DNA of 61,878 nucleotides, taken from an uncultured Bacilli bacterium. Lineage in GTDB: Bacteria > Bacillota_I > Bacilli_A > RF39 > UBA660. Numbering within the stretch: the stretch's first letter is position 1; the number at the start of each line of letters is the position of its first letter. The translations under genes and the position numbers were made by a program. Location of the stretch: contig CAKOIJ010000002.1 of assembly GCA_934086775.1 (NCBI GenBank), positions 1 to 61,878 on the forward strand, given 5' to 3'. This document shows positions 11,385 through 42,463 of this stretch, piece by piece. The notes under the pieces were generated by a model. It was not told the origin of the DNA. It worked only from the letters and a program-made list of their open reading frames with translations, and searched no databases.

Positions 11385-11421
11385 AATGTTGATAAATCTA
11401 GTTTTATCAACATTTTTCTTT
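11385..11421 (+). terminator. Intrinsic terminator
   Basis: aatgttgataaa / tttatcaacatt 12-bp stem followed by tttttcttt. Confidence 0.7.
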
Positions 11422-11471
11422 ACAAAATAAATTAAATAGTATAAAATACATACCAAAGGAGTAGTTGTATT

Positions 11472-12374: not shown

Positions 12375-12388
12375 AAAAGAACCTTTTT
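12361..12388. terminator. Bidirectional terminator shared by ORF 11472 and clpP
   Basis: aaaaggttct / agaacctttt stem flanked by A and T runs, overlapping both convergent stop codons. Confidence 0.65.
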
Positions 12389-12953: not shown

Positions 12954-13059
12954 ATTAAATCACCTATAAATATATTTACGAAAAAAATAAAAAAATATAC
13001 AAATAATAAGGCAAAAATCTAAAAATTTGATATAATATATATGAAAGTAGGTGCTATAC

Positions 13060-23395: not shown

Positions 23396-23422
23396 ATTTA
23401 ACAAAAAGAAAGGATGATAAAA

Positions 23423-25186: not shown

Positions 25187-25224
25187 GGTGGAATATTTCC
25201 ATCTTTTTTAGAAAGTAGGAACTT

Positions 25225-27149: not shown

Positions 27150-27385
27150 TTATCAAAACGAAGAAAAAGAGAAGTAAAATTATATTTTATTTAAGAGAGC
27201 TAACGGATGGTGAAAGTTAGTAATAAAAATAATTTGAATAACACTTTGGAGTGCTTTTCTGAAATTATAAAGTAGGGAAAGCCGTATAGATGCGTTAAAT
27301 CTTAAAGTGATCTATTGATATAGATAAATTAGGTGGCACCGCGGAAGCAGTATTTCGTCCTTTTTTGGATAAATACTGCTTTTAA
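27150..27385 (+). promoter_or_regulatory. T-box riboswitch leader (Asn specifier) of asnS
   Basis: AGAGA and GGATGGTGAAAG elements, AAU AAC A specifier context (AAC at 27240..27242), T-box AAATTAGGTGGCACCGCGG (27326..27344), terminator aagcagtattt/aaatactgctt (27345..27381). A TTGACA -35 box lies at 27117. Confidence 0.85.
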
Positions 27386-27407
27386 TTTATAAGAAAGGAT
27401 GGTAAAT

Positions 27408-28793
27408 ATGAATTACACATATTTAAAAGATTTATTTGAAAACGAAGAAAAATTAATAGGAAAAGAAATTACACTAAAAGGATGGATTAGAAATCATAGA
27501 CCTCAAAAAGAATTTGGTTTTATAGATTTTTCTGATGGTACAAGTTTTAGACATTTACAAGTGGTGTATACAAGTGAAATAGAAAATTTTGAAGAACTCT
27601 CTAAATTACATAATGGTTCAAGTATTAAAGTGGTGGGAGAATATATTAAGTCAGAAGGTTCAGGTCAAGAATATGAATTGAAAGCAAAAATGATAGAACT
27701 AATAGAAGATTGTCCAGAAGATTATCCACTTCAACCAAAAAAACATAGCATGGAATTTCTAAGAAGCATTGCATATTTAAGACCTAGAGCTAATACTTTC
27801 CAAGCTGTATTCAGAGTAAGAAGTGTTGCAGCTTATGCAATACATAAGTATTTTAATGAAAATAATTATATATATGTTCATACACCTCTTTTAACAACAG
27901 CGGATTGTGAAGGTTCTGATCAAATGTTCAAAGTAACTACTTTGGATTTCGATAATTTGCCAAAAAAAGATGGGAAAGTCGATTTTAGTAAAGATTTATT
28001 TAATAAAAAAACTTTTATTACTGGTTCAGGCCAACTTCATGGAGAAACTTTTGCTCTTGCATTCAGCAAAATCTATACCTTTGGGCCAACATTTAGAACA
28101 GAAAACTCAAATACCAAAACGCATGCTAATGAATTTTGGATGATAGAACCTGAAATAGCCTTTGCAGACATTAATGACTTGATGGATATTGAAGAAGATT
28201 TCTTGAAATATATTGTTAAACATGTATTGGAGGAGTGCCCAAATGAAATTGAATTTTTTGACAAATTTGTAGAAAAAGGATTAAAAGAAAAACTTGAAAA
28301 AGTAGTAAATAGTAAATTCGTTAGAATAGATCATAAAGACGTAATAGATCTTTTAATTAACAGTGGCGAGAAGTTTGAGTTTACCCCATCATATGATGAT
28401 GACATTGCAAAAGAACATGAAAAATGGCTTACAAAACACTTTAATGGACCAGTATTTGTTAAAAACTGGCCAAAAGATATAAAAGCTTATTATATGAAAC
28501 TTAATGAAGATGGTAAAACTGTTGCAGCAGTTGATTTAGAAGTGCCAGGTTCTGGTGAACTTATGGGTGGTTCACAAAGAGAAGAAAAACTAGACATTTT
28601 ATTAGCGCGTATGGAAGAACTTGGAATAGATAAAGAACCAATCGACTGGTATTTAAATTTAAGACGTTATGGAGGATGCATTCATTCAGGATTTGGAATG
28701 GGATTTGAAAGACTTATTATGTATCTAACAGGAATAGAAAATATTAGAGATGTAATAGCATACCCTAGAACTCCAAACAACTGTTTATATTAA
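27408..28793 (+). CDS. asnS: Asparaginyl-tRNA synthetase
   Basis: OB-fold N-terminus, class II motifs (FRTENSNTKTHANEFWMIEPE, GFGMGFERL). ATG 27408 is properly spaced from the AAAGGA RBS. Confidence 0.93.
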   Translation: MNYTYLKDLFENEEKLIGKEITLKGWIRNHRPQKEFGFIDFSDGTSFRHLQVVYTSEIENFEELSKLHNGSSIKVVGEYIKSEGSGQEYELKAKMIELIEDCPEDYPLQPKKHSMEFLRSIAYLRPRANTFQAVFRVRSVAAYAIHKYFNENNYIYVHTPLLTTADCEGSDQMFKVTTLDFDNLPKKDGKVDFSKDLFNKKTFITGSGQLHGETFALAFSKIYTFGPTFRTENSNTKTHANEFWMIEPEIAFADINDLMDIEEDFLKYIVKHVLEECPNEIEFFDKFVEKGLKEKLEKVVNSKFVRIDHKDVIDLLINSGEKFEFTPSYDDDIAKEHEKWLTKHFNGPVFVKNWPKDIKAYYMKLNEDGKTVAAVDLEVPGSGELMGGSQREEKLDILLARMEELGIDKEPIDWYLNLRRYGGCIHSGFGMGFERLIMYLTGIENIRDVIAYPRTPNNCLY

Positions 28794-28828: not shown

Positions 28829-28918
28829 TAATAGTTTATTTTATAACAAAATCTTTTAATTTATTCATATTTGCTGTATAATATAAACATTAAAAAGCAA
28901 AAATAGGAGTTGATAACT

Positions 28919-31324
28919 ATGTATAATTTTGATGAAGTAGAAAAAAAATGGCAAGAGTACTGGGAAAAACATCACACTTTTGAAGTGAAAAATGAAGGTA
29001 AAAATCCATATTACTTATTAGTTGAATTTCCATATCCAAGTGGTAGTGGCCTTCATGTAGGACATGTAAGAAGTTACACTGCTTTAGACTCAATGGCCAG
29101 AATGAAAAGAATGCAAGGATATAATGTATTGTTTCCTATGGGATTTGATGCTTTCGGAGCACCAGCAGAAGAATATGCTCTTAAAACACATACTCATCCC
29201 AAAGATGTCACTAAAGAATGTATAGATCACTTTAGAAATCAAATGAAAAGAATGGGCTTTGGTTTTGACTGGACAAGAGAATTTGCGACAACAGATCCGG
29301 ATTATTACAAATGGACACAATGGCAATTCTTACAATTTTTTAAACATGGAATGGCTTATAAGGATACAGTACCGGTAAACTGGTGTCCAAAATGTAAAAG
29401 TGTATTATCTAATGAAGATGCAGCTGGCGGGGTATGTGAGAGATGCGGCACTGAAGTTATACAAAAGGAAAAAAGTCAGTGGATGCTTAAAATGAGTTCA
29501 TATGCAGAAGATTTGCTTAAAGGTCTGGATGATACTCATTTTGCAGAAAAAGTTAAACTTGGTCAAATAAACTGGATAGGTAAATCAAGTGGAGTAGAAC
29601 TTGATGTTAATATAGTTGGTGGAGGCAAGTTTAGCGTTTTCACAACTTGTATTGAAACAGTATACGGAATTACTTTCTTCGTAATTGCCCCTGATGGCAA
29701 ATTAATAAAAGAATTAATGCCTAGAATTGAAAACAAAGAAGAAGTAGTAAAATACATAAACGAAACCGCAAAAAAATCAGACATGGATAGAACAGAACTT
29801 AACAAAGGAAAAACAGGTGTAGAATTAAAAGGATTAAAAGCAATAAATCCAGTTAACGGAAAAGAAGTTCCTATATTTATAGGTGACTTTGTATTAGGTG
29901 CATATGGCACAGGTGCTGTTATGGCTGTTCCTTCTCATGACCAAAGAGACTTTGAGTATGCTACAGTTCATAACATACCAATGATAAAAGTTATCGAAGG
30001 CAAAGATACTACTAATGAAGCATTTGAAAAAGGTGAGTACCTTGGTAAGGGATGCAAACTAATAAATTCAGAAGAATTTACTGGATTGACAGTAGAAGAA
30101 GCAAAAGAAAAAATAACTAAATACCTAGAAGAAAAAGGAATAGCAAAAAAAGTAAACAATTATAAAATGAGAGATTGGATATTCAGTAGACAAAGATTCT
30201 GGGGAGAACCAATACCAATGATAAATTGCCCAGAATGTGGATGGGTACCTATGGATGAAAAAGACTTACCTCTTTTACTTCCAGATGTTGCTGAATATGA
30301 ACCAACTGAAACTGGAGAAAGTCCTCTTGCTAAAATATCTGAATGGGTTAACTGTAAATGTCCAAAATGTGGTAATGATGCTAAAAGAGAAACAGATACT
30401 ATGCCACAGTGGGCTGGAAGTAGCTGGTATTTTCTAAGATTTATGGATGCCCATAACAATAAAGAATTTGCTAGTATGGAAGCAATGAAATACTGGAATA
30501 AAGTAAACTGGTACAATGGTGGAATGGAACACACTGCAAGACATCTATTATATGCAAGATTTTGGGTACAAATGCTTTATAACTTTGGTTTAGTTCCTAA
30601 CAAAGAAATGATAGACATAAGAGTTAGTCACGGAATGATACTTGGTAACAATCATGAAAAAATGAGTAAAAGTAAAGGTAATGTAATAAATCCAGATGAC
30701 ATAGTTAAAGAAGTTGGAGCAGATGCTTTAAGAGTTTATGAAATGTTTATAGGTGATTACCAACAAGATGCAGTTTGGTCAACTGACTCTTTAAGAGGAT
30801 GTAAAAGATTTTTAGACAAAATTGTTAGAATGGGTGAAAAAGTAGTAGAAAGTAATAAAATAAACGATGAGGTATTAATAAATAAAACGATTAAAAAAGT
30901 TACAGAAGACTTACTTACTCTTAAATATAACACAGCAGTTTCTTCATTAATGATTTTATCTAATGAACTAGATAAAAATGAAACAATTTCTAAAGAAGAA
31001 TACAGAATATTACTAACATTACTTAACCCGGTAGCGCCTCACATAACAGAAGAGCTAAATGAAAAATATAATTTAGGTAAACCAATATGTGAAAGTGAAT
31101 GGCCAAAATATGATGAAAGTAAAATAGTAGAAAAAACTGCGAAAATTGCTGTACAAGTAAATGGTAAACTGAGAAGTACAATCGAAGTGGAAGCAGACAC
31201 TCCAAAAGAAGAATTAATAAAACTTTCTAAAGAACTAGACAATGTAAAAAAACATATTGATGGAATGACTATAATTAAAGAAATAGTAGTGCCTAATAAA
31301 ATTGTTAACATTGTAGTTAAATAG
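28919..31324 (+). CDS. leuS: Leucyl-tRNA synthetase
   Basis: PYPSGSGLHVGH (HIGH), CP1 editing domain, KMSKSKGN. ATG 28919 lies 9 nt after AGGAG. Confidence 0.95.
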   Translation: MYNFDEVEKKWQEYWEKHHTFEVKNEGKNPYYLLVEFPYPSGSGLHVGHVRSYTALDSMARMKRMQGYNVLFPMGFDAFGAPAEEYALKTHTHPKDVTKECIDHFRNQMKRMGFGFDWTREFATTDPDYYKWTQWQFLQFFKHGMAYKDTVPVNWCPKCKSVLSNEDAAGGVCERCGTEVIQKEKSQWMLKMSSYAEDLLKGLDDTHFAEKVKLGQINWIGKSSGVELDVNIVGGGKFSVFTTCIETVYGITFFVIAPDGKLIKELMPRIENKEEVVKYINETAKKSDMDRTELNKGKTGVELKGLKAINPVNGKEVPIFIGDFVLGAYGTGAVMAVPSHDQRDFEYATVHNIPMIKVIEGKDTTNEAFEKGEYLGKGCKLINSEEFTGLTVEEAKEKITKYLEEKGIAKKVNNYKMRDWIFSRQRFWGEPIPMINCPECGWVPMDEKDLPLLLPDVAEYEPTETGESPLAKISEWVNCKCPKCGNDAKRETDTMPQWAGSSWYFLRFMDAHNNKEFASMEAMKYWNKVNWYNGGMEHTARHLLYARFWVQMLYNFGLVPNKEMIDIRVSHGMILGNNHEKMSKSKGNVINPDDIVKEVGADALRVYEMFIGDYQQDAVWSTDSLRGCKRFLDKIVRMGEKVVESNKINDEVLINKTIKKVTEDLLTLKYNTAVSSLMILSNELDKNETISKEEYRILLTLLNPVAPHITEELNEKYNLGKPICESEWPKYDESKIVEKTAKIAVQVNGKLRSTIEVEADTPKEELIKLSKELDNVKKHIDGMTIIKEIVVPNKIVNIVVK

Positions 31325-31451: not shown

Positions 31452-31880
31452 ATGATTAAAAGAATAGAAAAAAATAACAAAATATTTAAAAGTAGTGAAT
31501 TTCAAAAAGATAAACATAAATTTTTTAGAATACTACAAAATTTGAGTAGTGAAAATTTAGAACTTTACAGTGATGAAGAGAACTATGTGTTATGTAGAAG
31601 CGAAAAACAGTTATCTACTTGGATATGGACAAAAGATAATTTTGATAGACACTTATTGCCAGAAATAGAAAGCGCTATAGATAAATATAGATTAGATTTT
31701 GATACTAGATTTACCTGTAAAAAAGAATTATATAATTTATTAAAACAAGATGACTACAAGTACTTAGGAAATTATTATTTTGAAATGGGATATCTAGTAT
31801 GCTACGAAACAATTAAGCCAAAAAAAGTTGATGGTAAGTCCGCTTTAGCAAAAATAAGTGATATATATGTGTTGACGTAA
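31452..31880 (+). CDS. Hypothetical protein, possibly a truncated gene
   Basis: 142-aa ORF. Its TAA stop (31878..31880) is the only interruption before the in-frame tlyA-like remnant. Confidence 0.35.
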   Translation: MIKRIEKNNKIFKSSEFQKDKHKFFRILQNLSSENLELYSDEENYVLCRSEKQLSTWIWTKDNFDRHLLPEIESAIDKYRLDFDTRFTCKKELYNLLKQDDYKYLGNYYFEMGYLVCYETIKPKKVDGKSALAKISDIYVLT

Positions 31881-31901
31881 TTCGCTTATAATGAATCTAG
31901 A

Positions 31902-32204
31902 GAAATAAATGGAAAAGAAATCATATGCCTAATAAAACCACAATTTGAATGTGGTAAAGAAGTAGCAGATAAATATAAGGGAATAACATTAAATAAGGAA
32001 GTGCACGAAGAAGTAATAAAAAACGTAATAAATGAATTTAAAAAAATCAACTACTACTTAAATCAAATTACTTCGTCTCCAATAACAGGAGGAAATGGTA
32101 ACATAGAATACTTAGTATATTTAACTAGTGAAAATAAAAATTCAAAAATAAATATAAAAGATTTAGTAGAAAAAACTTTCGAAAAATTAAAATCAAAGGA
32201 GTAA
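31902..32204 (+). pseudogene. Remnant 3' copy of a tlyA-like gene (C-terminal ~95 codons only)
   Basis: Translates to KEIICLIKPQFECGKEVADKYKGITLNKEVHEEVIKNV...GGNGNIEYL. It aligns with the C-terminus of intact TlyA (25726..26007), about 65 of 92 residues identical by hand alignment. There is no N-terminal S4/SAM part. Confidence 0.7.
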
Positions 32205-32207
32205 AAA

Positions 32208-32786
32208 ATGAAATATTTAGGGTCAAAAATAATAGAAACAGAAAGAACAAAGTTAAGACCAACAATCGAATCAGACTTAATCACACTATGGAAAATGTTA
32301 GGAGATAAAGAACTTTCTAAATACTATTTAGTAGGAAAATATAATGAAGATTGGGAACAAGAGAAAAAATGGCAATATAAAAAATTAGAAAATGCGTTAA
32401 ATATGAATGTCTTCCAGTGGACAATAGTTTTAAAGGAAACTGGGGAAGTAATCGGCCAAATTTGCTGCCAAAACATAACAGATAAACCAGACACCATAAG
32501 AGACTTAGGATGGTTTATAGATAGAAAATATCAAGGGAAGGGCTTAGGTAGCGAAGTATCAAAAGCAGTAGTCGACTATATGTTTGAAGAGGTAGAAATA
32601 GATAAAATTGAGACGTCTGCTGCTGTAATTAACCCAGCATCTTGGAAACTAATGGAAAAAATGAACTTTAACAAAACAGGAAAATCTATAAATACCAAAT
32701 ACACTTTCCTAAATGAAGAAATAAAATGCGTATGCTATGAAATTACAAGAGATGAGTACATAAATAGAAAGCATCTAAAAAAATGA
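32208..32786 (+). CDS. GNAT-family N-acetyltransferase (RimJ/RimL-like)
   Basis: TERTKLRP N-terminus and QGKGLGSE acetyl-CoA binding motif. Confidence 0.8.
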   Translation: MKYLGSKIIETERTKLRPTIESDLITLWKMLGDKELSKYYLVGKYNEDWEQEKKWQYKKLENALNMNVFQWTIVLKETGEVIGQICCQNITDKPDTIRDLGWFIDRKYQGKGLGSEVSKAVVDYMFEEVEIDKIETSAAVINPASWKLMEKMNFNKTGKSINTKYTFLNEEIKCVCYEITRDEYINRKHLKK

Positions 32787-33040: not shown

Positions 33041-33069
33041 TTGACAAACAGGAAAATATATGATACTCT
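33041..33069 (+). promoter_or_regulatory. Candidate promoter of the queC-like operon
   Basis: TTGACA (33041..33046), 17-nt spacer ending in TGa, TACTCT (33064..33069). Confidence 0.45.
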
Positions 33070-33099
33070 TTAAACAGAAAAGGCGAAAATAAATCATAA

Positions 33100-33358
33100 T
33101 ATGATATTTGCAGTTTAAGTTGCGCAAATGTTATTGTGAATTTTGATTAGTGTTAATCATTAAATACATTAATATTAGAGATTTAGATTGAGATATCATA
33201 ATTATATGATGTCTCTTCTTTTGGATATTAAACAATATTTGTAGTTAAAGTTGCACAAATAATTAATATCGCAAATATAATATTAATGTTTTTATTAGAT
33301 TTGCATAAATATTTGATGAGTTTGATTGGGAATATTGCGAGAGACAATATTCCCTTTT
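33100..33358 (+). promoter_or_regulatory. Tandem structured leader: two copies of a covarying hairpin, each followed by an intrinsic terminator
   Basis: Hairpin 1 is ATTTGC-agtttaagttgc-GCAAAT (33106..33129) and terminator 1 is gagatatcata/tatgatgtctc+ttctttt (33190..33222). Hairpin 2 is ATTTGT-agttaaagttgc-ACAAAT (33237..33260) and terminator 2 is gggaatattg/caatattccc+tttt (33328..33358). Confidence 0.6.
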
Positions 33359-33381
33359 CAAATATTAGAAGGAGGAAACTT

Positions 33382-34041
33382 ATGAAAAAAGCAATTATTG
33401 CTATTAGTGGAGGAATTGATAGTGCAGTTGTAGCGGCTTTAGCAAAAAAAGAGGGGTATGATTTATATTTTTTAACTGTAGATTATGGTCAAAAGAATAT
33501 AAAAAAAGAGTTACAGAACTCAAAGGCATTAGCAAAAAAATTTGGAGTTGTGGAACATAAAATTATTGATATGAAATGGTTGGGAGATTTAGGCAATTCA
33601 ATAACAACAGACATTAATATTCATTTTGAAAACGTATCGGACGATTTTATATATGTTCCATATAGAAACACGTGCATTATATCAGCATGTGTAGCATGGG
33701 CTGAAACAATAGATGCCGATGTAATATATACTGGTAGTGATGGGGGACCATTTGTGTGTCCTGATAATAGCCCAGAATATTACAAGAGTATAAATGACCT
33801 TGTTTCGATGTCAACAAAACTAAACACAAAAATTAAAGTAGTTGCACCACTTAATTACAGCGATAAGGCAGATATCATAAAAAAAGGATTAGAATTGAAT
33901 TTACCATTTGAAAACACTTGGAGTTGCGTTGTAAGAGATGATAAGGCTTGTGGTATTTGTAAACCATGTAGAGACAGAATAGAAGGATTCAAAAAAGTAG
34001 GAGTAAATGATCCTATAGAATACCTTGAAGGAGGAAAATAA
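33382..34041 (+). CDS. queC: QueC-family PP-loop ATPase (7-cyano-7-deazaguanine synthase-like)
   Basis: AISGGIDS PP-loop, VDYGQ, VPYRN, C-terminal Cys cluster SCVVRDDKACGICKPCRDR. ATG 33382 follows GGAGGA; the track start 33286 would place terminator 2 inside the CDS. Confidence 0.8.
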   Translation: MKKAIIAISGGIDSAVVAALAKKEGYDLYFLTVDYGQKNIKKELQNSKALAKKFGVVEHKIIDMKWLGDLGNSITTDINIHFENVSDDFIYVPYRNTCIISACVAWAETIDADVIYTGSDGGPFVCPDNSPEYYKSINDLVSMSTKLNTKIKVVAPLNYSDKADIIKKGLELNLPFENTWSCVVRDDKACGICKPCRDRIEGFKKVGVNDPIEYLEGGK

Positions 34042-34704
34042 ATGAAAAGTAAAGAAACAACAAATCAATTTTATTCAAAAATATTTCTTTTTATATCCAT
34101 ACTATTTGTAGCGTGTATACTAATATCCAATATACTCGCTTCAAAGATAATAAATATATTTGGTTTTTCGATGACTGGAGGAGTACTAGTATTTCCTATA
34201 ACATATATTTTAGGAGATGTAATTACAGAAATTTATGGCTACAAGAATTCAAAAAAAATCATTATTTATGGATTTATCTGTAATTTACTAATGGTATTAT
34301 TATTTGCACTTGCAATAAAGCTTCCTTACCCAGATTACTGGCAAAATCAAGAAGCATTTATATCAATATTAAGTAATACACCAAGATTACTATTGGCTTC
34401 TTTTATAGGATATTTAGTTGGTGGTTTATCGAACTCATATATTATGGAATACATAAAAAACAACTCTAAAATTAAACATTTATGGTTCAGAACAATACTT
34501 TCAACTATAGTTGGTGAAAGCCTAGATACCTTTATATTCTTAATGATAGGATTTTATGGCACAATGAAAACAAACAACTTATTGCCTATGATTTTTTATC
34601 AATCTTTAGCTAAAATATTGTATGAAACTTTATTTACGCCAATCACATACAAAGTAATCACATACATTAAAAAGAAAGAAAAAAGCTTGAATTATGTACA
34701 CTAA
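34042..34704 (+). CDS. yhhQ: YhhQ/Vut_1 (DUF165)-family queuosine-precursor transporter
   Basis: Six hydrophobic segments and VFPITYILGDVITEIYGY, VGESLDTFIFL motifs typical of the family. Starts 1 nt after the queC stop. Confidence 0.8.
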   Translation: MKSKETTNQFYSKIFLFISILFVACILISNILASKIINIFGFSMTGGVLVFPITYILGDVITEIYGYKNSKKIIIYGFICNLLMVLLFALAIKLPYPDYWQNQEAFISILSNTPRLLLASFIGYLVGGLSNSYIMEYIKNNSKIKHLWFRTILSTIVGESLDTFIFLMIGFYGTMKTNNLLPMIFYQSLAKILYETLFTPITYKVITYIKKKEKSLNYVH

Positions 34705-34718
34705 AAAATGGTGATAAT

Positions 34719-35504
34719 ATGAAGAAGGAAAAAAAGAAATACAAAATAAGTGTAGTTATATGTGTGGCAGATGATTTGAGAATAAAAAATATGTTAGACA
34801 GCATTAATGAACATTGTGAGGTACTAATAGTTCTTAATGGGGCTACGCATCAATTAAAAGAAATCATAAATTGCTATGACTCAATGGATAGATTTGAATT
34901 AAACACAATTGAAATCGAAGAAAGAAATCTTAGTAAAGCTCGTAATTTAGGAATGATAAATGCAAAATACGATAAAGTAGTATTTTATGATAGTGATTGT
35001 ATTATGACAAAAAATGCTTTGCAAAACTATGATAAATATTTAGACAAATATTTATTAGTTGATGGTCAAGTAAATTTTAAAAGTGATAATTTTCAAAGCA
35101 AAATAATTAGTGTCCAAAGATCAATGGGGTTGCCAGGATACGCATTATGTCCATCAATAGGAATAAACAAAAAAATAAAAGACAAAATAGAATATTATTT
35201 TGATGAAGATATAAAATGGATAGAAGATTCAGAACTAAATGTACGTGTTCAAAACAAAAACATTAAAATAGGCTTTATAAATGATTTAACTTGTATCCAC
35301 GATAATTTGACATTTAGACAAGATTTAAAATCTGCTTATAGATATGGTACAGGTGTTAAAACAGCAAGTAGAAAAGGACTTCATAAAAAAAGTCCTAATG
35401 CAAATTGGAATTTAATAATTCCTTGTGTAAAAAAGAATATTTTAACTGGGGTTTATTGTATATTATGGAATATAGTATATTGTGTAGGTTATTACACAAG
35501 TTAG
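34719..35504 (+). CDS. Family 2 glycosyltransferase
   Basis: ISVVICVADD N-terminal beta-strand and the YDSD (DxD) motif. Confidence 0.75.
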   Translation: MKKEKKKYKISVVICVADDLRIKNMLDSINEHCEVLIVLNGATHQLKEIINCYDSMDRFELNTIEIEERNLSKARNLGMINAKYDKVVFYDSDCIMTKNALQNYDKYLDKYLLVDGQVNFKSDNFQSKIISVQRSMGLPGYALCPSIGINKKIKDKIEYYFDEDIKWIEDSELNVRVQNKNIKIGFINDLTCIHDNLTFRQDLKSAYRYGTGVKTASRKGLHKKSPNANWNLIIPCVKKNILTGVYCILWNIVYCVGYYTS

Positions 35505-35513
35505 GGAGGTAAA

Positions 35514-37157
35514 ATGAAAGTTTTAGGATTAAATGGATGGACAGAAAGAGGACACGATGGTGGAGCTAGTTTAATTGTGGATGGCAAATTATTGTTTTCT
35601 ATAGAAGAAGAAAAATTAATTGGAAAACGTCATGCCTACGATACTTTACCATTAGAATCAATAAAAGCATGTTTAAATGCGGGTAACATAACATTAGATG
35701 ATATTGACAGATTTGTCATAGGTTGGGATTTTGAAAAAATTTATAAAATGCTTGGGAAAGAATTTTTAACTAAAGAGGAAGTATCTAAAATTTTGTTTAA
35801 TAATAACAAATATGCAAATAAATTAGAATACTTAGAGCATCATAAAGCACATGCTTATAGTGCATTTATACCATCAAATTACGAAAAAGCGCTTGTATTA
35901 ATTGTAGATGGACAGGGTGAATATATGGGAACAACTTTATATTTGGCCGATAGAAACAAAAATGACTTGAAATTAATGATGGAAACACCGGTATCAATTG
36001 GATACTTTTATGCCGGAATTACAAAACAAATTGGTTTTAAAAGTGGAGAAGAAGGAAAGACTATGGGACTTGCTTCGTATGGAGAGCCTATATATGCAGA
36101 TGAATTAAGAAAACTAATATATTTAAAAGAAGATGGAAGTATAGGATGTGTATTTCATATAGATAAAATTAGCAAAGATGAAGAAGATGCAACACTTCAA
36201 AAATGGGAAAAATTATTATCAAAAATTATACCAAAAAGAGAAGGAAAAATAATTAATATAACTGAAGATATAATACCATATGCAAATCTAGCACGCTCTG
36301 CCCAAAAAGTAATAGAGGAATTGATGACTGGAATAATAAAAAAATACGTTAAAGAAACTGGTGTTCATAACGTTTGCATAGCAGGAGGTGTGGGTCTTAA
36401 TTGTCCTACTTCAACTGCCGTTGAAAAATTAAAAGAAGTAGATGGAGTATTTATACAACCTGCAGCAAATGATGGAGGTATATCATTAGGTGCCGCAATT
36501 CAAGGTGCACTTGATCTTGGAGATAATGTAAATATTGAAATGATACCTTATCTAGGAAATAAATTTTCTCAAGAAATAATTGAAAGTGAACTTCAAAAGA
36601 AAAATTATGAATACAAAGTATATGACAATATAGAAAAAATAATTGCAGAATTAATTTATGAAGGAAAAATAGTAGCAAATTACCAAGGACGCTTAGAACT
36701 AGGACCAAGAGCTTTAGGTAATCGTAGTCTGCTAGCAAGCCCTGAAAAATATGAAACTTTAGTTAGAATGAATGAACTAAAAGGAAGAGAAGTTTGGAGA
36801 CCTCTAGCACCTGCAGTTTTATATGACAAGCAAGAAATGGTGTTTGATTCAAATATATTTTCACCTCATATGACAAAAAACTTTAATGTGTTAAATGAAA
36901 TGAAAGATAAATTAGAGGCAATTACTCACGTTGATGGTACAGCGCGTATTCAATCAGTTACGAAAAAATATAATGAATTATTTTATAATATAATAAATGA
37001 ATTTTACAAATTATCAGGTATTCCAGTAGTTATAAATACATCCTTTAATGTAAAAGGAGAGCCAATTGTTAATACTCCAAGCGAAGCAATAGATAGTTTT
37101 GAAAGAATGAATTTAGACTATTTATCAATAGGAAGATGTTTAGTTAAAAAGAAATGA
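35514..37157 (+). CDS. NodU/CmcH/TobZ-family carbamoyltransferase
   Basis: MKVLGLNGWTERGHDGGASLIVDGKL, EHHKAHAYSAF, GGVGLNC, GPRALGNRSLLASP, NTSFNVKGEPIV motifs. Confidence 0.85.
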   Translation: MKVLGLNGWTERGHDGGASLIVDGKLLFSIEEEKLIGKRHAYDTLPLESIKACLNAGNITLDDIDRFVIGWDFEKIYKMLGKEFLTKEEVSKILFNNNKYANKLEYLEHHKAHAYSAFIPSNYEKALVLIVDGQGEYMGTTLYLADRNKNDLKLMMETPVSIGYFYAGITKQIGFKSGEEGKTMGLASYGEPIYADELRKLIYLKEDGSIGCVFHIDKISKDEEDATLQKWEKLLSKIIPKREGKIINITEDIIPYANLARSAQKVIEELMTGIIKKYVKETGVHNVCIAGGVGLNCPTSTAVEKLKEVDGVFIQPAANDGGISLGAAIQGALDLGDNVNIEMIPYLGNKFSQEIIESELQKKNYEYKVYDNIEKIIAELIYEGKIVANYQGRLELGPRALGNRSLLASPEKYETLVRMNELKGREVWRPLAPAVLYDKQEMVFDSNIFSPHMTKNFNVLNEMKDKLEAITHVDGTARIQSVTKKYNELFYNIINEFYKLSGIPVVINTSFNVKGEPIVNTPSEAIDSFERMNLDYLSIGRCLVKKK

Positions 37158-37166
37158 GAATAAGAA

Positions 37167-38063
37167 ATGATAAAAGAAATAATAGATAATAAACAATGGG
37201 ATGATGAAATATCTAAATCGGAAGATTGTACATTTTATCAATCTTCAAATAACAGAGGATTATGTGAATTTAATGGAGCAAAAACTTATTGTATAAAATA
37301 CCAAGGTGAAGAATCCAAAATACTTGCAATGGTTGCAGTGTACCCAAGTTTTATTAGTATACCTTTTGGACCAATAATATATGGAAAACAAGATGAAAAA
37401 GAGTTATTAAATTTCCTAAACATAGTTCGAAGAAAATTTAGATTGCCAGTAAAGTTTTGCCTTTTTAATGAAAAAATTGATAACTATAGTTGGATTCAAA
37501 ATAATGCTAGAAATGTTTGGAATTTCACAACAGCGTTGTTAAATGTTGATTCTGACATTGATACTATAAAAGCAAGATTTAATCAAAATAGAAGAAGAAT
37601 AATTAGAAAGGCACTTGTTAATTTAAAAGATTCTATTATAAGTATGGATAAAAATAATGCAGAATTATTTTACAAAATGTATAGTGAAAGATTATATACA
37701 ACACATGGAGAGGTAGACTTCACTTCAAATGAATTGCTAAATATGTTAAGAAACGAAAATGTAAATTTATATATGTGTATTTTAAATAGTAAACCCATAG
37801 CGGGGATAGTCACATTTAAATTTAATGATACATTGATTACTAGGTATAATTGTACGGATACTAAATATCTTTCATTAAATCCAAATTCATATTTAGATTA
37901 TTACTTAATTAATAAAGGGATTAAAGATCCAAATCTAAAATACTATGATTTCAGTGGAATATCAGAAGAAACTTCCAATGAAACAAAGCTAAAAAATATA
38001 GATAGATATAAATATTCATATGGACCTAATTTAATAAAAAAATATAATTGGTATATGTTTTAA
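37167..38063 (+). CDS. FemAB-like / GNAT-fold (Acetyltransf_6-type) transferase
   Basis: ~300 aa two-lobed pattern with FYQS, NQNRRRIIRKA and NPNSYLDYY segments, as in FemX/FemAB-like proteins. The donor substrate is unknown. Confidence 0.6.
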   Translation: MIKEIIDNKQWDDEISKSEDCTFYQSSNNRGLCEFNGAKTYCIKYQGEESKILAMVAVYPSFISIPFGPIIYGKQDEKELLNFLNIVRRKFRLPVKFCLFNEKIDNYSWIQNNARNVWNFTTALLNVDSDIDTIKARFNQNRRRIIRKALVNLKDSIISMDKNNAELFYKMYSERLYTTHGEVDFTSNELLNMLRNENVNLYMCILNSKPIAGIVTFKFNDTLITRYNCTDTKYLSLNPNSYLDYYLINKGIKDPNLKYYDFSGISEETSNETKLKNIDRYKYSYGPNLIKKYNWYMF

Positions 38064-38244
38064 AAATTAAATATGCAATAAAATAGAAAGTAATATTTGA
38101 TTGGTATTGCTTTTTATTTTTATTAATAAATCTATATTATTAATTTTCATTGTATAAAAACAAATATATATTGAGATAAAATGGTATTTAAAAAGTATAC
38201 TAAGTGAACAATCATCACAAGTGTAATTAATTTTATACAAAGCA

Positions 38245-38273
38245 TTGACTTTGTGTACTTTATATGGTATAAT
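38245..38273 (+). promoter_or_regulatory. Strong sigma-A promoter
   Basis: TTGACT-17-TATAAT. Confidence 0.65.
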
Positions 38274-38301
38274 TTTAAACAGTTAAGGGGGAAATGAAAA
38301 A

Positions 38302-39483
38302 ATGATTAAATTAGACAAAAATCCTAATCCTACTAAAGATCAACACTTTATGGTAGATAAGGAAATGTTAGAATTAATTTATGATTCAGCAAATATTCAA
38401 GATGGTGAATCAATTGTTGAAATAGGTGGAGGAGCTGGTGCATTAACTGATTATTTAGTACAAGGTAATAACCACGTTACAGTAATTGAAAAAGATCCAT
38501 ATTATGCAGCATTATTAAAAAGCAAGTATGCTAGTAAAAATAATGTTGAGGTTATAGAGGGAGACGCTTTACAATTTAACTACCAAAATTATGATAGATT
38601 GGTAGCTAATCTTCCATATACAATTACTGAATCATTTTTAATTAATTTAGCAAGTACAGGTGCTTTAGATTATAATCCGAATAGTAAAGATGGTTCTTTA
38701 TTAAAAAGTGTAACACTAGTTTTATCTCAAAACTCAACGAGAAAAATGTCGGCTCCAGTTCAGATAACAGAAGGAAAATCAAGACACATAAACCAAGAAT
38801 TTGGAATTATGAGTATGATTTGCAAAGTGTTTTGTGATTTAGATATCATCTCTGCTATTCCAAGCGAGGCATTTTATCCTGCACCCGCTGTGACATCTTT
38901 TGTAGTTAATTTAACACCAAAAAAAGAAAAAACAACGGTCGATAGAATTATCCGTGAAATGTTAATGGATAAAAAATCAACGCGTTCATCTATTAAAAGA
39001 ATTTATCAATTAATGCTTACTCGAGGGGAAATTTATAAATTAAATAAACACAAAAATAATTTTACAAAATCAATGAGTGGAAGTTTTACCTCAAAACTAA
39101 TTGAAGATAGCAATGTTTATGATTTAAATCACGCACAAATATCACAATTAGTTCAAGATTTAATTAGAAATGATATATCAATTAAATCAAAAAATGCTGG
39201 GCGCACAAATTCTTACAGAGAAGATGATTACACAAGATATTTTGAGGGTAATACCTTTGTATATAATTCTGACGATTTAATTGATGAATACGATGATGAA
39301 TATGAACAAGAGCAAATTTTCAAAGGTATCAAATCTAAATTTGAAAGAAAATATGATTACATGTTTGATGAAAGAATATATGAATTATTATTACACAGAG
39401 GATTAGAGTATATTGATCCAATTGAATTTCAAGAAATGTTAGGAAATTCAAAACAAAACAACTTGACTTTGAGAAAAAAGTAA
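38302..39483 (+). CDS. Erm/KsgA-family rRNA adenine N6-methyltransferase homolog with a long C-terminal extension
   Basis: DQHFMV, VEIGGGAGALT (SAM motif I), VIEKD, ANLPYTITE (motif IV), then ~190 extra residues including an acidic DDLIDEYDDEYEQEQ stretch. Confidence 0.75.
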   Translation: MIKLDKNPNPTKDQHFMVDKEMLELIYDSANIQDGESIVEIGGGAGALTDYLVQGNNHVTVIEKDPYYAALLKSKYASKNNVEVIEGDALQFNYQNYDRLVANLPYTITESFLINLASTGALDYNPNSKDGSLLKSVTLVLSQNSTRKMSAPVQITEGKSRHINQEFGIMSMICKVFCDLDIISAIPSEAFYPAPAVTSFVVNLTPKKEKTTVDRIIREMLMDKKSTRSSIKRIYQLMLTRGEIYKLNKHKNNFTKSMSGSFTSKLIEDSNVYDLNHAQISQLVQDLIRNDISIKSKNAGRTNSYREDDYTRYFEGNTFVYNSDDLIDEYDDEYEQEQIFKGIKSKFERKYDYMFDERIYELLLHRGLEYIDPIEFQEMLGNSKQNNLTLRKK

Positions 39484-39494
39484 ATAGAAATATA

Positions 39495-39524
39495 GAATTG
39501 GACAATTTGCTCCAATTCTTTTTT
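39495..39524 (+). terminator. Intrinsic terminator
   Basis: gaattgga / tccaattc stem followed by tttttt. Confidence 0.7.
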
Positions 39525-39547
39525 ATTTAACGTTCTTAAATGTTAGG

Positions 39548-39577
39548 TTGCAGGCACAGTTAACCATATGATATAAT
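39548..39577 (+). promoter_or_regulatory. Sigma-A promoter
   Basis: TTGCAG-18-TATAAT with an upstream TG (extended -10). Confidence 0.6.
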
Positions 39578-39601
39578 AATTAAAGAAAGGAGAAAGATAA
39601 A

Positions 39602-40393
39602 ATGGAATTTATTAATGACCCTAATTATTATGATCAACATTTTTTAATAAATGAAAATGTGATTGAAAAATTTATTGAAATTTCAAACCTTAATAAAGAT
39701 GATATCATAGTAGAAGTAGGTCCTGGTCAAGGAATACTTACAAAAAAAATAGCACCTAAAGTAAAAAAAGTATACTGTATTGAGCTTGATACAAGATTGA
39801 AAACATTTTTAGATGAGATATGTAACGAATATAAAAATATCGAGATAATATATAACAATGTACTAAACACTTTTATTCCAAAATGTACAAAAATCATTAC
39901 TGCGCTTCCATATAGTATAGTTGAACCATTTATGAATAAGATGCTTAAATGTGAATTTGATGAATTGATAATGATTACTGGAAAAAGATTTGCAGAAAAA
40001 GTTATGAAAAAAGAAATAAATCGTCTTAGTTTAATGGTTAATTGCTTTTTTGAGTTTGAAAAAATTATGGATATTACACCAGATAATTTTTCTCCGAGAC
40101 CTAGAGTATTATCTTCAATGATTAAACTAAAACCTAAGAAAAATTTAACTGATTTCAACGATATGATTTTTAAAAGATTATTTTTAATGAAAAACAAAAA
40201 AATTAAAAATGGTCTAGTCGAGTGTTTAATTATAAATAAATATTGCAATACACAAAAAGAGGCAAAAAGTATCGTGGCAGAACTAAATTTACCTGAGGAT
40301 CTATTAGAAACCAAATTTGAGGTGTGCTCAAATACAGATTTGGCAAATTTATATAATGAAGTAAACAAATTGTCGAAAAGAAAAACCAACTAA
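39602..40393 (+). CDS. Erm/KsgA-family rRNA adenine N6-methyltransferase homolog (second paralog)
   Basis: DQHFLI, VEVGPGQGILT, CIELD, TALPYSIVEP motifs; 263 aa, Erm-like size. Confidence 0.75.
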   Translation: MEFINDPNYYDQHFLINENVIEKFIEISNLNKDDIIVEVGPGQGILTKKIAPKVKKVYCIELDTRLKTFLDEICNEYKNIEIIYNNVLNTFIPKCTKIITALPYSIVEPFMNKMLKCEFDELIMITGKRFAEKVMKKEINRLSLMVNCFFEFEKIMDITPDNFSPRPRVLSSMIKLKPKKNLTDFNDMIFKRLFLMKNKKIKNGLVECLIINKYCNTQKEAKSIVAELNLPEDLLETKFEVCSNTDLANLYNEVNKLSKRKTN

Positions 40394-40499
40394 TTAGTTG
40401 GTTTGTATAACACTCTATTCTGTTTTAGATTATAAATACTATAAATGTTTTAATATGTTTTTAATATTTTATAAACACGATTATGTAAAGATAAAAAAT

Positions 40500-40528
40500 T
40501 TGCAAAAGCATCACAAGTGTGCTATAAT
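40500..40528 (+). promoter_or_regulatory. Sigma-A promoter with an inverted repeat around the -10 box
   Basis: TTGCAA-17-TATAAT. AAGTGT (40515..40520) and ACACTT (40533..40538) bracket the -10 box. Confidence 0.6.
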
Positions 40529-40559
40529 AAGTACACTTTTTGTATTAGAGGGGGAAACT

Positions 40560-42407
40560 ATGGAAAATATAGTAAGAGAAGACAAAAGACAAGAATTAAA
40601 CAGAAAACTAACAGGTGTAATTCACGAAGATAGAATTTGGGAACAATGGTATGATCAAAAAATATTTGATTTACAATTACCAAAAATGTCACAGAAAGAC
40701 TATCTATTCAAATGTATAGGTGATGACTTAAATCGTATTATGATTAACAACAGAGGTTTAAAAAAATACACTGTAGAAGAATTCTATAATATGGTTATAG
40801 ATTATGAAAAAGCATTTAGCAAAATGAATCTTAATAAAGAAGATGTAATATGCACTATAGGACTTACTACTCCAGAAATGTATGCTATAAAATATGCTGC
40901 TACATCATTAGGATTAATAACTTGTAACCTAAATGTTCTAGATATGGGTGTAACTGATGATGGAAAAAACAGACTCTACAATCAACTTTCAAACGTTAAT
41001 CCAAAAATGATATTTACTTTAGACATTCTAGAAGACAAAATATATAAAGTAATAAATGACGAAAGGTTCAGAGATGCAGTAAAAGTATCAATGCCATTAA
41101 CTGCTTCTACAAAAGCGCTTAATCCAGAAAGAGCAATATTTAATTTAAAAATGTTAAAAGACTATCTATCTGGTAAAAAAATAAATTACAAAATGAAATT
41201 AAGTGATTTCCTAGAATTAGGAAGAAATGTAAATATGGAAGAAATAAATGAAATATATGAAGAGAAACTTCCTTGTAATATTTCATTCACAAGTGGAACA
41301 ACAGGAGTAAATAAAGCAGTGTTAATATCTCACGATGCCAATAATGCATTAGCATTTCAACAACAAGTAGGAAATTTTGGATTCGAAAGAGGCACAAAAC
41401 ATTTAGCACTAGTACCACCTTTCCTAGCATTCTGGGATGCAGATATAGTTCACGCTGCACTTGTTCAAGGAGCTGAAAACATCATCGAGCTATTCCTTGA
41501 TTACAAAAAAATACCAGGATACTTTAAAAAATATGATATTAACCTAGGAATATGGAGCCAATATCTATGGAGTTCATTAGAACTACTAAGTGAAAAAGAT
41601 TTAAAAAGAGTAAAAGAAAATTTGAAATTAGCAATAGTAGGTGGAGAAAGATGTGAAATAAACGCAGCTGAAAAATTTTACAACAAAACTGGAGTACTTC
41701 AAACAACAGGATATGGTGCTTCAGAAGTAAACACAACTTTTAGTTTTGCACATCCATACTGTAAAAAAATCGGAACAGCCGGAATACCTATGCCATATAA
41801 TAACGTTAAAATAACTGATGCTTCATTAAATGACGTAACATATGGTGTAAATGGTAAACTATTTATAACTGGCCCTACTCTAATGAATGGATACTACAAG
41901 AGAGAAGACTTAACCGAAAAAGCAATATACGTTGATAAAGACGGAACAAAATGGTATTACACAGGAGACTACGCAGTATTAGATAAAGATGGTTGCCTAA
42001 CAATACTTGATAGATATAGTGAACCTATAACTATTAAATCAAATGGAAAGACTGAACAAGTTAACAAATTAGATATTGTTGAAAAAATAAAAAAAGATAG
42101 GAATATCAAAAATTGCAAAATGACATTTAATAATGAAAAATTAGTACTTCACATATCATTAGATGACTTTTATAGCATTCCAGAAGAAGAAAAAATAGAA
42201 AGCATTATAAAAACTATAAAAGAAAACCTAGATCCAAAATACTATCCAAATATAATAAATGTTCTAGAAGAATTACCACGTACATCAGTAGGAAAAGTAG
42301 ATTACAAGTCTTTAGAAAAAATGGGACAAAATCTTACAATCAACTTGGATGAAAAAACTAAATTAGTAATAGTAAAAGAAGAACCAAAAAAATTGAAAAG
42401 GAAGTAG
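40560..42407 (+). CDS. Adenylate-forming enzyme (acyl/aryl-AMP or CoA ligase superfamily)
   Basis: SFTSGTTGVNKAV, TGYGASE, YYTGDYAVLDKDGCLTILDR, PRTSVGKVDYKSL core motifs. ATG 40560 follows GAGGGGG and the promoter at 40500, so the track start 40398 is rejected. Confidence 0.8.
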   Translation: MENIVREDKRQELNRKLTGVIHEDRIWEQWYDQKIFDLQLPKMSQKDYLFKCIGDDLNRIMINNRGLKKYTVEEFYNMVIDYEKAFSKMNLNKEDVICTIGLTTPEMYAIKYAATSLGLITCNLNVLDMGVTDDGKNRLYNQLSNVNPKMIFTLDILEDKIYKVINDERFRDAVKVSMPLTASTKALNPERAIFNLKMLKDYLSGKKINYKMKLSDFLELGRNVNMEEINEIYEEKLPCNISFTSGTTGVNKAVLISHDANNALAFQQQVGNFGFERGTKHLALVPPFLAFWDADIVHAALVQGAENIIELFLDYKKIPGYFKKYDINLGIWSQYLWSSLELLSEKDLKRVKENLKLAIVGGERCEINAAEKFYNKTGVLQTTGYGASEVNTTFSFAHPYCKKIGTAGIPMPYNNVKITDASLNDVTYGVNGKLFITGPTLMNGYYKREDLTEKAIYVDKDGTKWYYTGDYAVLDKDGCLTILDRYSEPITIKSNGKTEQVNKLDIVEKIKKDRNIKNCKMTFNNEKLVLHISLDDFYSIPEEEKIESIIKTIKENLDPKYYPNIINVLEELPRTSVGKVDYKSLEKMGQNLTINLDEKTKLVIVKEEPKKLKRK

Positions 42408-42463
42408 TTTATATTTCCTTTTTATTATGCTATAATTACCATAGTAGAAAGGTATGTGATTAT

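Follow-up and report, generated by a model that had tools for sequence, protein, structure and literature searches.

A conserved gene cluster of gut and rumen Bacilli with a predicted route to a carbamoylated, aminoacylated 7-deazaguanine glycoside and a candidate RNA switch in its leader

The subject of this study is a gene cluster in a 61,878-nucleotide stretch of DNA from an uncultured Bacilli bacterium (contig CAKOIJ010000002.1 of assembly GCA_934086775.1, positions 1 to 61,878 of the forward strand), which is called the window throughout. At its center lies a row of five plus-strand genes that code for a QueC-like PP-loop ATPase (33382..34041, 219 residues), a Vut_1/YhhQ transporter (34042..34704, 220 residues), a small GT-A glycosyltransferase assigned to GT2 (34719..35504, 261 residues), a NodU/CmcH/TobZ-type O-carbamoyltransferase (35514..37157, 547 residues), and a Fem-like double-GNAT protein, which is a putative aminoacyl-tRNA-dependent transferase (37167..38063, 298 residues). 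An earlier note on this DNA had described the row as five closely packed open reading frames (ORFs) behind one promoter and a structured leader of ~300 nucleotides (nt), with no internal terminator, and that description holds: the gaps in the ORF list are exactly 0, 14, 9, and 9 nt, two terminator-like hairpins are seen in the leader, and a terminator scan finds none on the plus strand between 33215 and 39494. The promoter (33041..33069, plus strand), as read from the sequence, consists of a −35 element TTGACA (33041-33046), a 17-nt spacer, and a TG-extended −10 element TGaTACTCT (33061-33069). It was not listed by a consensus scan because its −10 hexamer matches at three of six positions, and TTGACA or TTGACT promoters stand at the equivalent relative position in several related loci (L007, L013/L103, L104, and L033 in our numbering). 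The long ORF of the QueC-like gene opens at 33286, and the ATG at 33382 is its likely start because AGGAGGA precedes it at 33370-33376, a choice that agrees with the homologs.

The linkage of these genes recurs well beyond the window. Related loci were collected from contigs encoding relatives of the QueC-like protein, the Fem-like protein, or Rrn393, from four loci in metagenome-assembled genomes (MAGs), and from loci bearing the leader motif, giving ~22 distinct loci. Rrn393 and Rrn263 are two KsgA-like methyltransferases encoded at 38302-40393, which the earlier note had overlooked. Relatives of the QueC-like protein (65-80% identical), GT2 (60-73%), the carbamoyltransferase (58-78%), and Rrn393 (52-78%) co-occur in these ~22 loci while the gene order varies among them, and relatives of Rrn263 (47-68%) and of the Fem-like protein (31-45%) are often present too. 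These genes very probably form one functional cluster, to which all five genes of the row belong and which, by this comparison of sequences, is larger than five genes and extends over ~33041-40393 in the window. The glycosyltransferase, carbamoyltransferase, and FemAB-like genes do not have unrelated neighbors in the relatives, a circumstance that the earlier note had named as one that would make the adjacency fortuitous. Clustering at 90% identity still leaves more than 100 versions of the cluster. Where a source is named, it is a MAG of an uncultured member of the Bacilli, Firmicutes, or Erysipelotrichaceae from a gut or rumen sample, and a scan of species-representative genomes with strict single-protein patterns returned four close loci, all in MAGs. 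No close relatives were found on viral contigs, and sequenced plasmids hold only distant homologs of QueC and KsgA, less than 40% identical.

The QueC-like protein matches the Pfam QueC family (PF06508) with E 2e-50 and a score of 171.7 against a gathering threshold of 22, while it stays below the cut-off of TIGR00364 (145.6 versus 150.3) and far below that of PRK11106. It is ~28% identical to Bacillus subtilis QueC (3bl5), as estimated by eye from the alignment. The SGGIDS PP-loop and the zinc-binding cysteines C-x8-CGICKPC are present and conserved among its close relatives. The earlier note had pointed to these hallmarks and to a departure from the canonical SGYPDCR motif; the departure is real and extends to the whole group, in which YGQKN and GPW/F-x-CPDNSPE are found in at least 90% of 116 members where canonical enzymes have (D/H)YGQRH and DFSGYPDCR. 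More than 115 relatives are 52-80% identical to the window protein, whereas identity to canonical QueC proteins does not exceed 40%. We regard these QueC-like proteins as a distinct subfamily, which was found only in such clusters. Their predicted role is activation of the 7-carboxylate of 7-carboxy-7-deazaguanine (CDG), and the linkage to the CDG-forming enzymes FolE, QueD, and QueE speaks for CDG as their substrate. The protein is also weakly similar to Cap9 (9nto, E 6e-10) and to QatC, and some loci contain a second, more divergent QueC paralog.

The second gene product was correctly named a YhhQ/Vut_1-type transporter in the earlier note: it scores 137.4 bits on TIGR00697 against a cut-off of 50.95 over residues 17-211 and matches Pfam Vut_1 with E 2e-48. 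What the note missed is how the gene is distributed. FolE/QueD/QueE genes are found in 13 distinct loci and Vut_1 in nine, the window included, and no locus has both; the absence of folE, queD, and queE from the window, which the note had also claimed, was confirmed by tblastn. This mutual exclusion argues that the transporter replaces de novo synthesis of the QueC substrate. In L011 (10001-11287), the QueC-like protein and Vut_1 are fused in one ORF of 428 residues, and in L083 (905-2188), the two reading frames are continuous without a gap; such a fusion joins a soluble enzyme to a membrane transporter. Escherichia coli YhhQ imports preQ0 and preQ1 (PMC5372724). Since QueC acts upstream of preQ0, the pairing and fusion of Vut_1 with the QueC-like protein point instead to import of CDG or a pre-QueC compound, and the simplest reading is that the imported compound would be CDG, or at least a precursor that still needs the QueC-like enzyme.

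The remaining assignments of the earlier note were likewise upheld by Pfam and NCBIfam profiles, those of GT2 and the Fem-like protein weakly. GT2 matches PF00535 (Glycos_transf_2) with E 1e-9, and its match in the PDB, 5tze, annotated as “glycosyl transferase,” is weak (E 0.0013). The carbamoyltransferase has both expected domains (Carbam_trans_N, E 4e-41; Carbam_trans_C, E 2e-61), i.e., a Kae1-like N-terminal and a YrdC-like C-terminal domain, and is matched over its full length (residues 1-546, E 6e-90) by TobZ (3ven), an enzyme that carbamoylates an aminoglycoside sugar. The Fem-like protein has weak Pfam matches to Acetyltransf_6 (E 7e-6, 26.7 versus 22) and FemAB (E 1.5e-5, 24.4 versus 24), and phmmer against the PDB finds 9wqw and 9wqy alone, both called “aminoacyl-tRNA-dependent peptide synthase.” Its AF2 model (pLDDT 91) has a double-GNAT fold, for which the best Foldseek matches are Sbb17/Sba18 with streptothrisamine (E 5e-19, TM 0.78-0.81), ranked ahead of FemX (6snr, 1ne9) and FemA (1lrz), all with probability 1.00. 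By sequence and fold, the nearest solved relatives of the Fem-like protein are thus the streptothrisamine aminoacyl-tRNA transferases Sbb17/Sba18, with 19% identity to Sbb17. K282, within R280-Y281-K282, is invariant, and homologs of the protein are rare (18 clusters, 31-54% identity).

The two methyltransferases stand outside the five-gene row, each with its own promoter in the window. The Rrn393 unit (38245..39519, plus strand) comprises the promoter TTGACT-17-TATAAT with TG (38245-38273), which is the best sigma-70 match in the region, a short 5′ untranslated region without a leader peptide, the coding sequence 38302-39483 (393 residues, a predicted rRNA adenine-N6 methyltransferase), and a terminator at 39494-39519; it is followed by the gene of Rrn263 (39602..40393, plus strand, 263 residues), a second KsgA/Erm-family methyltransferase. 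Both proteins belong to RrnaAD (E 1e-31 for Rrn393 and 4e-38 for Rrn263), and both fall under the equivalog cut-offs of KsgA (TIGR00755, 137.8 and 158.9, respectively, versus 171) and of Erm (NF000499, 102 and 115.3 versus 212). In Rrn393, the SAM motif EIGGGxGALT and the catalytic ANLPYT are invariant. The structural model of Rrn393 is nearest to KsgA/Dim1, with ErmC′ at rank 45, which would make 16S rRNA the likely target, and it has a helical C-terminal extension of ~150 residues that is partly ordered. Rrn393 is encoded in nearly every related cluster, upstream of the leader in several of them, and we consider it a dedicated component because three relatives picked at 56-61% identity all lie within such clusters. 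Orthologs of Rrn263 (47-68% identical) adjoin the cluster in L002, L004, L007/8, L009, L010, and L083. In addition, a remnant of a tlyA-like gene, encoding the C-terminal ~100 codons of an rRNA 2′-O-methyltransferase, is found 5′ of the leader (31890..32204, plus strand). It is 61% identical to the intact TlyA encoded at 25225-26007 and lies in frame behind the stop codon of an unrelated ORF of 142 residues (region 31452-32204) that has no Pfam match. In L007/L008 and L083, the cluster is flanked by intact TlyA-like genes, so the window cluster may formerly have included a third rRNA methyltransferase.

The leader, which the earlier note had recognized as structured and had not seen to be conserved and specific, consists of two tandem units on the plus strand, each with one intact hairpin and one degenerate one. 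Unit 1 (33093..33221) contains a sensor hairpin with a stem at ~33101-33134 and the core TTTGCAGTTTAAGTTGCGCAAAT (33107-33129), a spacer with the degenerate second hairpin, and a terminator at 33190-33215 followed by a T-run. Unit 2 (33224..33362) contains a sensor hairpin at 33236-33261 with the core TTTGTAGTTAAAGTTGCACAAAT (33238-33260), a spacer, and the terminator GGGAATATTG/CAATATTCCC (33328-33354) followed by TTTTC, which is an inverted repeat in the sequence. The 23-nt motif occurs twice in the leader, where 0.00 occurrences are expected from 100 shuffles, and the fold z-scores are −3.1 for unit 1 and −3.8 for unit 2. Most related loci carry one to four tandem units of ~140 nt, made up of hairpin A, hairpin B, and an intrinsic terminator, 5′ of the QueC-like gene or of FolE-QueD-QueE-QueC-like genes. 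A covariance model (R1) built from 19 units detects unit 1 with 42 bits (E 0.0028) and unit 2 with 59.7 bits (E 5e-6), and all of its 46 hits with E below 0.01 in 877 kb are in cluster loci.

The hairpin loop of 12 nt, AGUUAAAGUUGC, is almost invariant. The hairpin stem shows covariation: the closing pair (Y5-R18) is CG in 23 cases, UA in 27, UG in one, and CA in one, and the next pair is GC in 51 and UA in one. The three-hairpin state, with the terminator formed, is 90% paired and has 14 pairs changed on both sides. In the alternative state, an antiterminator forms between the 5′ arm of hairpin A and the terminator, whose 5′ half and loop take part in the pairing. This antiterminator is the global minimum-energy fold in 13 of the 19 units; its helix is 96% paired and has four double changes (CG15/AU4, AU14/UA3, AU7/UA3/CG2, and AU17/GC2). 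In unit 1 of the window, the 5′ arm AUAUGAUAU can, by eye, pair with AUAUCAUA of the terminator 5′ arm, with the same compensation as in the relatives. The leader is very probably a two-state regulatory RNA switch between terminator and antiterminator. Because the 5′ arm of the hairpin is shared with the antiterminator, stabilization of the hairpin would favor termination; a small ligand or a protein would both fit as the effector. For the two nearly invariant hairpins, the structures from RNAalifold disagreed with one another, and the 12-nt loop closed by Y5-R18 and an inner GYAG/UUGC helix are both compatible with the few variants.

No family of Rfam 15, including preQ1-I, II, and III, hits the leader element in the window or in seven related loci at gathering thresholds, and relaxing E up to 10 on the window leader alone and on a canonical tandem leader brings noise-level microRNA and snoRNA matches and nothing else; the other Rfam matches are a T-box elsewhere, the start of 16S rRNA, and one tRNA. 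A pattern scan of metagenome contigs for the motif gave 80 loci, most of them with a single match attributable to chance, and such matches were taken as real only when clustered or accompanied by a covariance-model hit. Mimicry of rRNA by the leader was considered by comparing the loop by eye with the sequences of helix 45, helix 34, the 23S GTPase center, and A2058, and was rejected since the matches were weak and AU-rich. L009 (~9000-9300) and L004 (4488-4687) have no hairpin motif, yet they have a similar AAUAUUG-type terminator, and L009 contains a different repeated element (..CCGAUAUUGUG.., ..CCGAUAGUGA.., and ..CCGACAAGUGA..), perhaps a second type of leader.

Around this core, the clusters vary in their tailoring genes. 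Besides the Fem-like gene, the variable members include a radical SAM/SPASM enzyme accompanied by an S66 (MccF/LdcA-type) peptidase, a symporter of the Na+/alanine family, large methyltransferases, and a TlyA-like methyltransferase. L011/L083 encode, instead of GT2 and the carbamoyltransferase, an NDP-sugar transferase, a DegT aminotransferase, an FAD oxidase, and a HAD hydrolase. A second glycosyltransferase, also of GT2, is fused to a QueE-like radical SAM (Radical_SAM/Fer4_12) region in a protein of ~575 residues in L009 (12386-14107), L010 (9994-11733), L034, L049, and L079, and we know of no characterized counterpart of this fusion. A DcsG_N-type ATP-grasp is fused to the carbamoyltransferase or encoded beside it in L009 (14142-16769), L103 (16658-19288), and L102 (7493-8467); DcsG is known from D-cycloserine biosynthesis. 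L007 has a fusion of the carbamoyltransferase with a methyltransferase. L007/L008 (1-20663) have the entire cluster, including the two KsgA-like genes and a TlyA-like one, inside a conjugative or integrative element, where its neighbors code for ArdC, PrgI, a TraG-like ATPase, a PemK toxin, and serine and tyrosine recombinases. This location makes the candidate resistance genes mobile.

The window itself is chromosomal DNA of a low-GC (~28%) Firmicute and also encodes DnaB, FtsEX, WhiA, glycolytic enzymes, Spo0A, several aminoacyl-tRNA synthetases, ORFs of ribosomal-protein size, and the start of 16S rRNA. The T-box leader is full length (27152-27365, 147.9 bits) and precedes a gene for a class II aminoacyl-tRNA synthetase (27399-28793; tRNA-synt_2 plus an OB fold), after which LeuRS is encoded at 28910-31324. 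Pfam matches nothing at E up to 1e-5 in two sizeable plus-strand ORFs of 424 and 300 residues at 10073-12374. Directly 3′ of the cluster, at 40398-44665, are genes for an AMP-binding (acyl-CoA ligase-like) protein and a hybrid histidine kinase; a similar kinase (45% identical) and ligase (24%) are encoded directly 5′ of the leader in L049/L079/L089, which could reflect functional linkage or shared ancestry. Directly 5′ of the window leader (32208-32786) is a gene for a RimJ/RimL-type GNAT acetyltransferase, and a small GNAT is encoded within the cluster in L010. Acetylation is the usual mechanism of resistance to streptothricin, so the window gene may serve immunity as a second such gene; it is not a constant feature of the loci. 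A threonyl-tRNA synthetase gene (12121-13884) adjoins the cluster of L102, and the ThrRS-TlyA genes of the window (23414-26007) lie 7 kb upstream, a proximity that probably reflects conserved chromosomal context and, less likely, a resistant copy of the synthetase.

Taken as a whole, the locus comes closest to a natural-product cluster for 7-deazapurines in which the decoration would follow the streptothricin type and immunity would come from target modification. The proposal of the earlier note, a pathway that glycosylates, carbamoylates, and possibly aminoacylates a 7-deazapurine, is well founded given the conserved linkage. In the scheme considered here, gene functions are taken from homology, and the order of the steps and the chemistry are our deductions. 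Vut_1 would import a 7-deazaguanine precursor, most likely CDG, from the gut, and in other family members FolE/QueD/QueE would make it from GTP. The QueC-like enzyme would adenylate the 7-carboxylate and lead to a nitrile (preQ0) or a RoyL-like amide; GT2 would glycosylate the base, probably with an amino sugar; the TobZ-like enzyme would O-carbamoylate the sugar; and the Fem-like enzyme would use aminoacyl-tRNA to attach an amino acid to an amine on the intermediate, in the way that Sbb17/Sba18 act on streptothrisamine. The predicted product, a guanine mimic whose sugar is carbamoylated, would bind the 30S subunit. Both KsgA-like enzymes, expressed from their own promoters outside the control of the leader, would methylate rRNA adenines and so spare the ribosomes of the producer; such self-protection would account for the methyltransferases with the fewest assumptions. 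The two tandem RNA elements would gate the operon: the hairpin would compete with the antiterminator for its own 5′ arm, and when a 7-deazaguanine-type ligand or a protein stabilizes the hairpin, the terminator would be freed and the operon turned off. We give this complete model, with a 7-deazaguanine glycoside, a ribosomal target, and methyltransferase immunity, a little more than an even chance. That the product is a free small molecule is reasonably probable, and this option is favored because the tailoring genes diversify, because one version lies on a conjugative element, and because a TGT or DpdA domain is missing from the gene tables of the loci; among the three options that the earlier note had left side by side, we rate a modified tRNA base and an envelope decoration lower.

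Several observations weigh against this model or loosen parts of it. The leader motif is missing from three divergent versions (L001, L004, and L009). Whether the QueC-like product is a nitrile or an amide is left undecided because amide-making QueC homologs such as RoyL are known. The assignment of GT2, which would attach the sugar, is weak, and a Pfam scan of the window operon shows neither a dedicated exporter nor a sugar deacetylase or aminotransferase to supply the amine for the Fem-like enzyme. At least one host encodes QueH as well: in L104, a gene for this epoxyqueuosine reductase (18923-19486) is found 8 kb from the cluster and beside L11/L1 and NusG, so the host of L104 probably also makes queuosine tRNA. 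As for immunity, motif IV of Rrn263 is ALPY or SLPY, not NLPY, in all seven sequences compared, which suggests altered activity or specificity, and the known KsgA and TlyA methylations sensitize ribosomes to kasugamycin and capreomycin rather than protecting them. Rrn393 is moreover as constant as the core enzyme, with which a biosynthetic, regulatory, or RNA-directed role would also fit.

Such a role is at the heart of the idea that the cluster serves hypermodification of RNA, in which a queuosine-like base would be inserted by the TGT of the host and then decorated, or in which the KsgA-like proteins would direct the chemistry to the small subunit. Vertebrates galactosylate or mannosylate the queuosine of tRNA, with one of the enzymes belonging to the GT2 family, the predicted Fem-like enzyme would handle tRNA, and the KsgA-like methyltransferase, an RNA-binding protein, is encoded as constantly as the QueC-like enzyme; the missing exporter and the one host with QueH near its cluster also agree with the idea. 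However, the gene tables of all loci examined list no TGT/DpdA domain, so a base-exchange enzyme is found neither in nor near the clusters, and TGT, QueA, and QueF domains are absent among the window ORFs scanned, some small ORFs having been left unscanned, as the earlier note had said of queF and tgt. Strong variation of the tailoring genes among close relatives and the location of one version on a conjugative element are typical of secondary metabolism. The enzymes nearest to the Fem-like protein and the carbamoyltransferase act on small-molecule antibiotics, and the methyltransferases form separate, apparently constitutive transcription units. We consider hypermodification improbable, and its narrower form, in which a decorated 7-deazaguanine is installed on the small ribosomal subunit or tRNA, the KsgA-like proteins target RNA, and the leader hairpins mimic the substrate, quite improbable, even though it would mean a new kind of RNA hypermodification together with a new regulatory RNA.

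An intracellular metabolite without antibiotic function, such as a cofactor, a signal, or a storage form of salvaged 7-deazaguanine, would explain the lack of an exporter, the resemblance of the leader to metabolic feedback control, and salvage of the precursor by Vut_1; the KsgA-like proteins might then be, for instance, regulators that bind the leader, with a precedent in ErmC, which binds its own mRNA. This reading leaves unexplained up to three rRNA methyltransferase genes (Rrn393, Rrn263, and TlyA-like), the invariant catalytic motifs of Rrn393, and the streptothricin-like set of enzymes, and it seems unlikely. Each gene family involved has housekeeping members, FemAB and GT2 proteins being typical of the cell wall and queC and yhhQ of riboswitch-controlled queuosine genes, so the row could be imagined as queuosine salvage by QueC/YhhQ that by chance adjoins an envelope-decoration module of GT2, carbamoyltransferase, and FemAB. 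Fortuitous adjacency is nevertheless hardly credible, given linkage over ~22 distinct loci with rearranged order, a QueC-like subfamily no more than 40% identical to canonical QueC and found only in such clusters, a leader that is no known preQ1 riboswitch, and a Fem-like fold nearer to antibiotic enzymes than to FemX. The weak similarity to Cap9 and QatC and the mobile version beside a toxin gene could also suggest an anti-phage or DNA-modification system akin to Dpd, type IV CBASS (Cap9), or Qat (QatC). No DpdA, TGT, Cap10 partner, cyclase, or effector was found, the locus tables contain no QatD-type partner, and PADLOC reports a generic QueC hit and a methyltransferase-domain hit with no system proteins. 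Because a TGT-like partner is lacking, the cluster is not Dpd, CBASS, or Qat; no relatives were found on viral contigs and the partner enzymes are typical of small-molecule tailoring, so that a defense function is very remote.

If the preferred reading of a small-molecule product directed at the ribosome is true, common uncultured Bacilli of the gut and rumen possess a large and diversifying cluster family that makes 7-deazaguanine glycosides directed at the ribosome, in contrast to known 7-deazapurine natural products, almost all of which come from actinomycetes. The scaffold would be new and akin in logic to streptothricin, which is itself being re-examined against resistant Gram-negative bacteria, and the cluster would bring a new KsgA-like resistance determinant that is already on a conjugative element. 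The exchange of transporter for pathway, together with the fusion, would predict that the YhhQ family includes a CDG importer and that the chemistry of this QueC subfamily is altered. With two defined states and a narrow gene association, the leader makes a clean candidate for a riboswitch or attenuator of a new class.

Among known systems, the same two protein families as in the first two genes are found behind a transcription-terminating leader in queuosine salvage (queC, yhhQ/queT, and preQ1 riboswitches). The cluster is not a queuosine operon because both its leader, which matches no preQ1 model, and its QueC subfamily are different. Attenuators with a binding hairpin are familiar from the binding loop of PyrR, OFF riboswitches, and the tandem-hairpin guanidine-II riboswitch. 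The window leader is like them in the use of a conserved hairpin as an anti-antiterminator and in tandem repetition, with two similar hairpins in most units of its family, while no Rfam family resembles it in sequence or in loop motif. Self-resistance by Erm/KsgA enzymes offers a parallel for the methyltransferases, which belong to the same RrnaAD family, have an intact SAM site and NLPY in Rrn393, and form a separate unit beside biosynthetic genes; they differ in that both fall under the two equivalog cut-offs and that Rrn393 has a C-terminal extension.

The nearest characterized pathway, overlooked in the earlier note, which had mentioned pacidamycin and NodU-type enzymes, is that of streptothricin and BD-12 (glycylthricin). 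The shared plan would be a guanine-mimicking base N-linked to a sugar that bears an O-carbamoyl group, with a Fem-like aminoacyl-tRNA-dependent transferase supplying an amino acid, and a 7-deazaguanine with a carbamoylated and aminoacylated sugar would be a close functional analog of streptothricin. The hosts of streptothricin are Streptomyces, whereas those of the present cluster are uncultured low-GC gut Bacilli, and known resistance to streptothricin is by acetylation, whereas the candidate here is a KsgA-like methyltransferase. The base of streptothricin is streptolidine, in place of which the QueC-like enzyme is predicted to provide 7-deazaguanine, and genes for streptolidine and β-lysine are not seen in the window cluster. 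The carbamoyltransferase and the Fem-like protein are the only counterparts of this class in the window, so the likeness is one of logic and not of membership. Streptolidine mimics guanine and pairs with C1054 of 16S rRNA, and the carbamoylated sugar touches A1196, helix 34 being the target (PMC10187937). In BD-12 biosynthesis, a Fem-like enzyme places glycine from Gly-tRNA on the C2-amine of carbamoylated gulosamine (PMC10156733, PMC12945691), and the FAD oxidase and aminotransferase of L011/L083 recall its FAD enzyme Orf1 (PMC10156733).

From the side of the base, N-glycosylated 7-deazaguanines are known from actinomycetes as huimycin and dapiramicin, whose clusters are alike in making a 7-deazaguanine core with FolE/QueD/QueE/QueC and in having a glycosyltransferase and methyltransferases and no insertion enzyme (bioRxiv 10.64898/2026.04.15.718813). 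Their glycosyltransferase is of PF13439 instead of GT2, their hosts are Actinomycetota instead of Bacilli, and a carbamoyltransferase, a Fem-like enzyme, rRNA methyltransferases, the transporter swap, and such a leader are not reported for them; the words “carbamoyl” and “YhhQ” are absent from the text of the mining paper on 7-deazapurines (bioRxiv 10.64898/2026.04.15.718813). RoyL, from the pathway of roseomycin A (peptidyl 7-deazapurines), adenylates CDG and couples an amine without forming preQ0 (bioRxiv 10.64898/2026.04.15.718813). RoyL and the window protein are both divergent QueC homologs in clusters of the secondary-metabolite type, a likeness of description, and the cluster partners of RoyL, ATP-grasp and TauD, differ from those in the window. 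Full-text searches on the gene combination and on a related riboswitch brought up no published description of the cluster or its leader; in the earlier note, too, the combination of five functions had not been recognized from any characterized cluster. The rule of Cediel-Becerra et al. (2026) for 7-deazapurine biosynthetic gene clusters asks for FolE, QueD, and QueE (with QueC optional) and tailoring genes, with no dpdA/TGT; 13 related loci satisfy it locally, and the window would escape it because the transporter replaces those genes. The cluster belongs outside the streptothricin, huimycin, toyocamycin, and roseomycin families.

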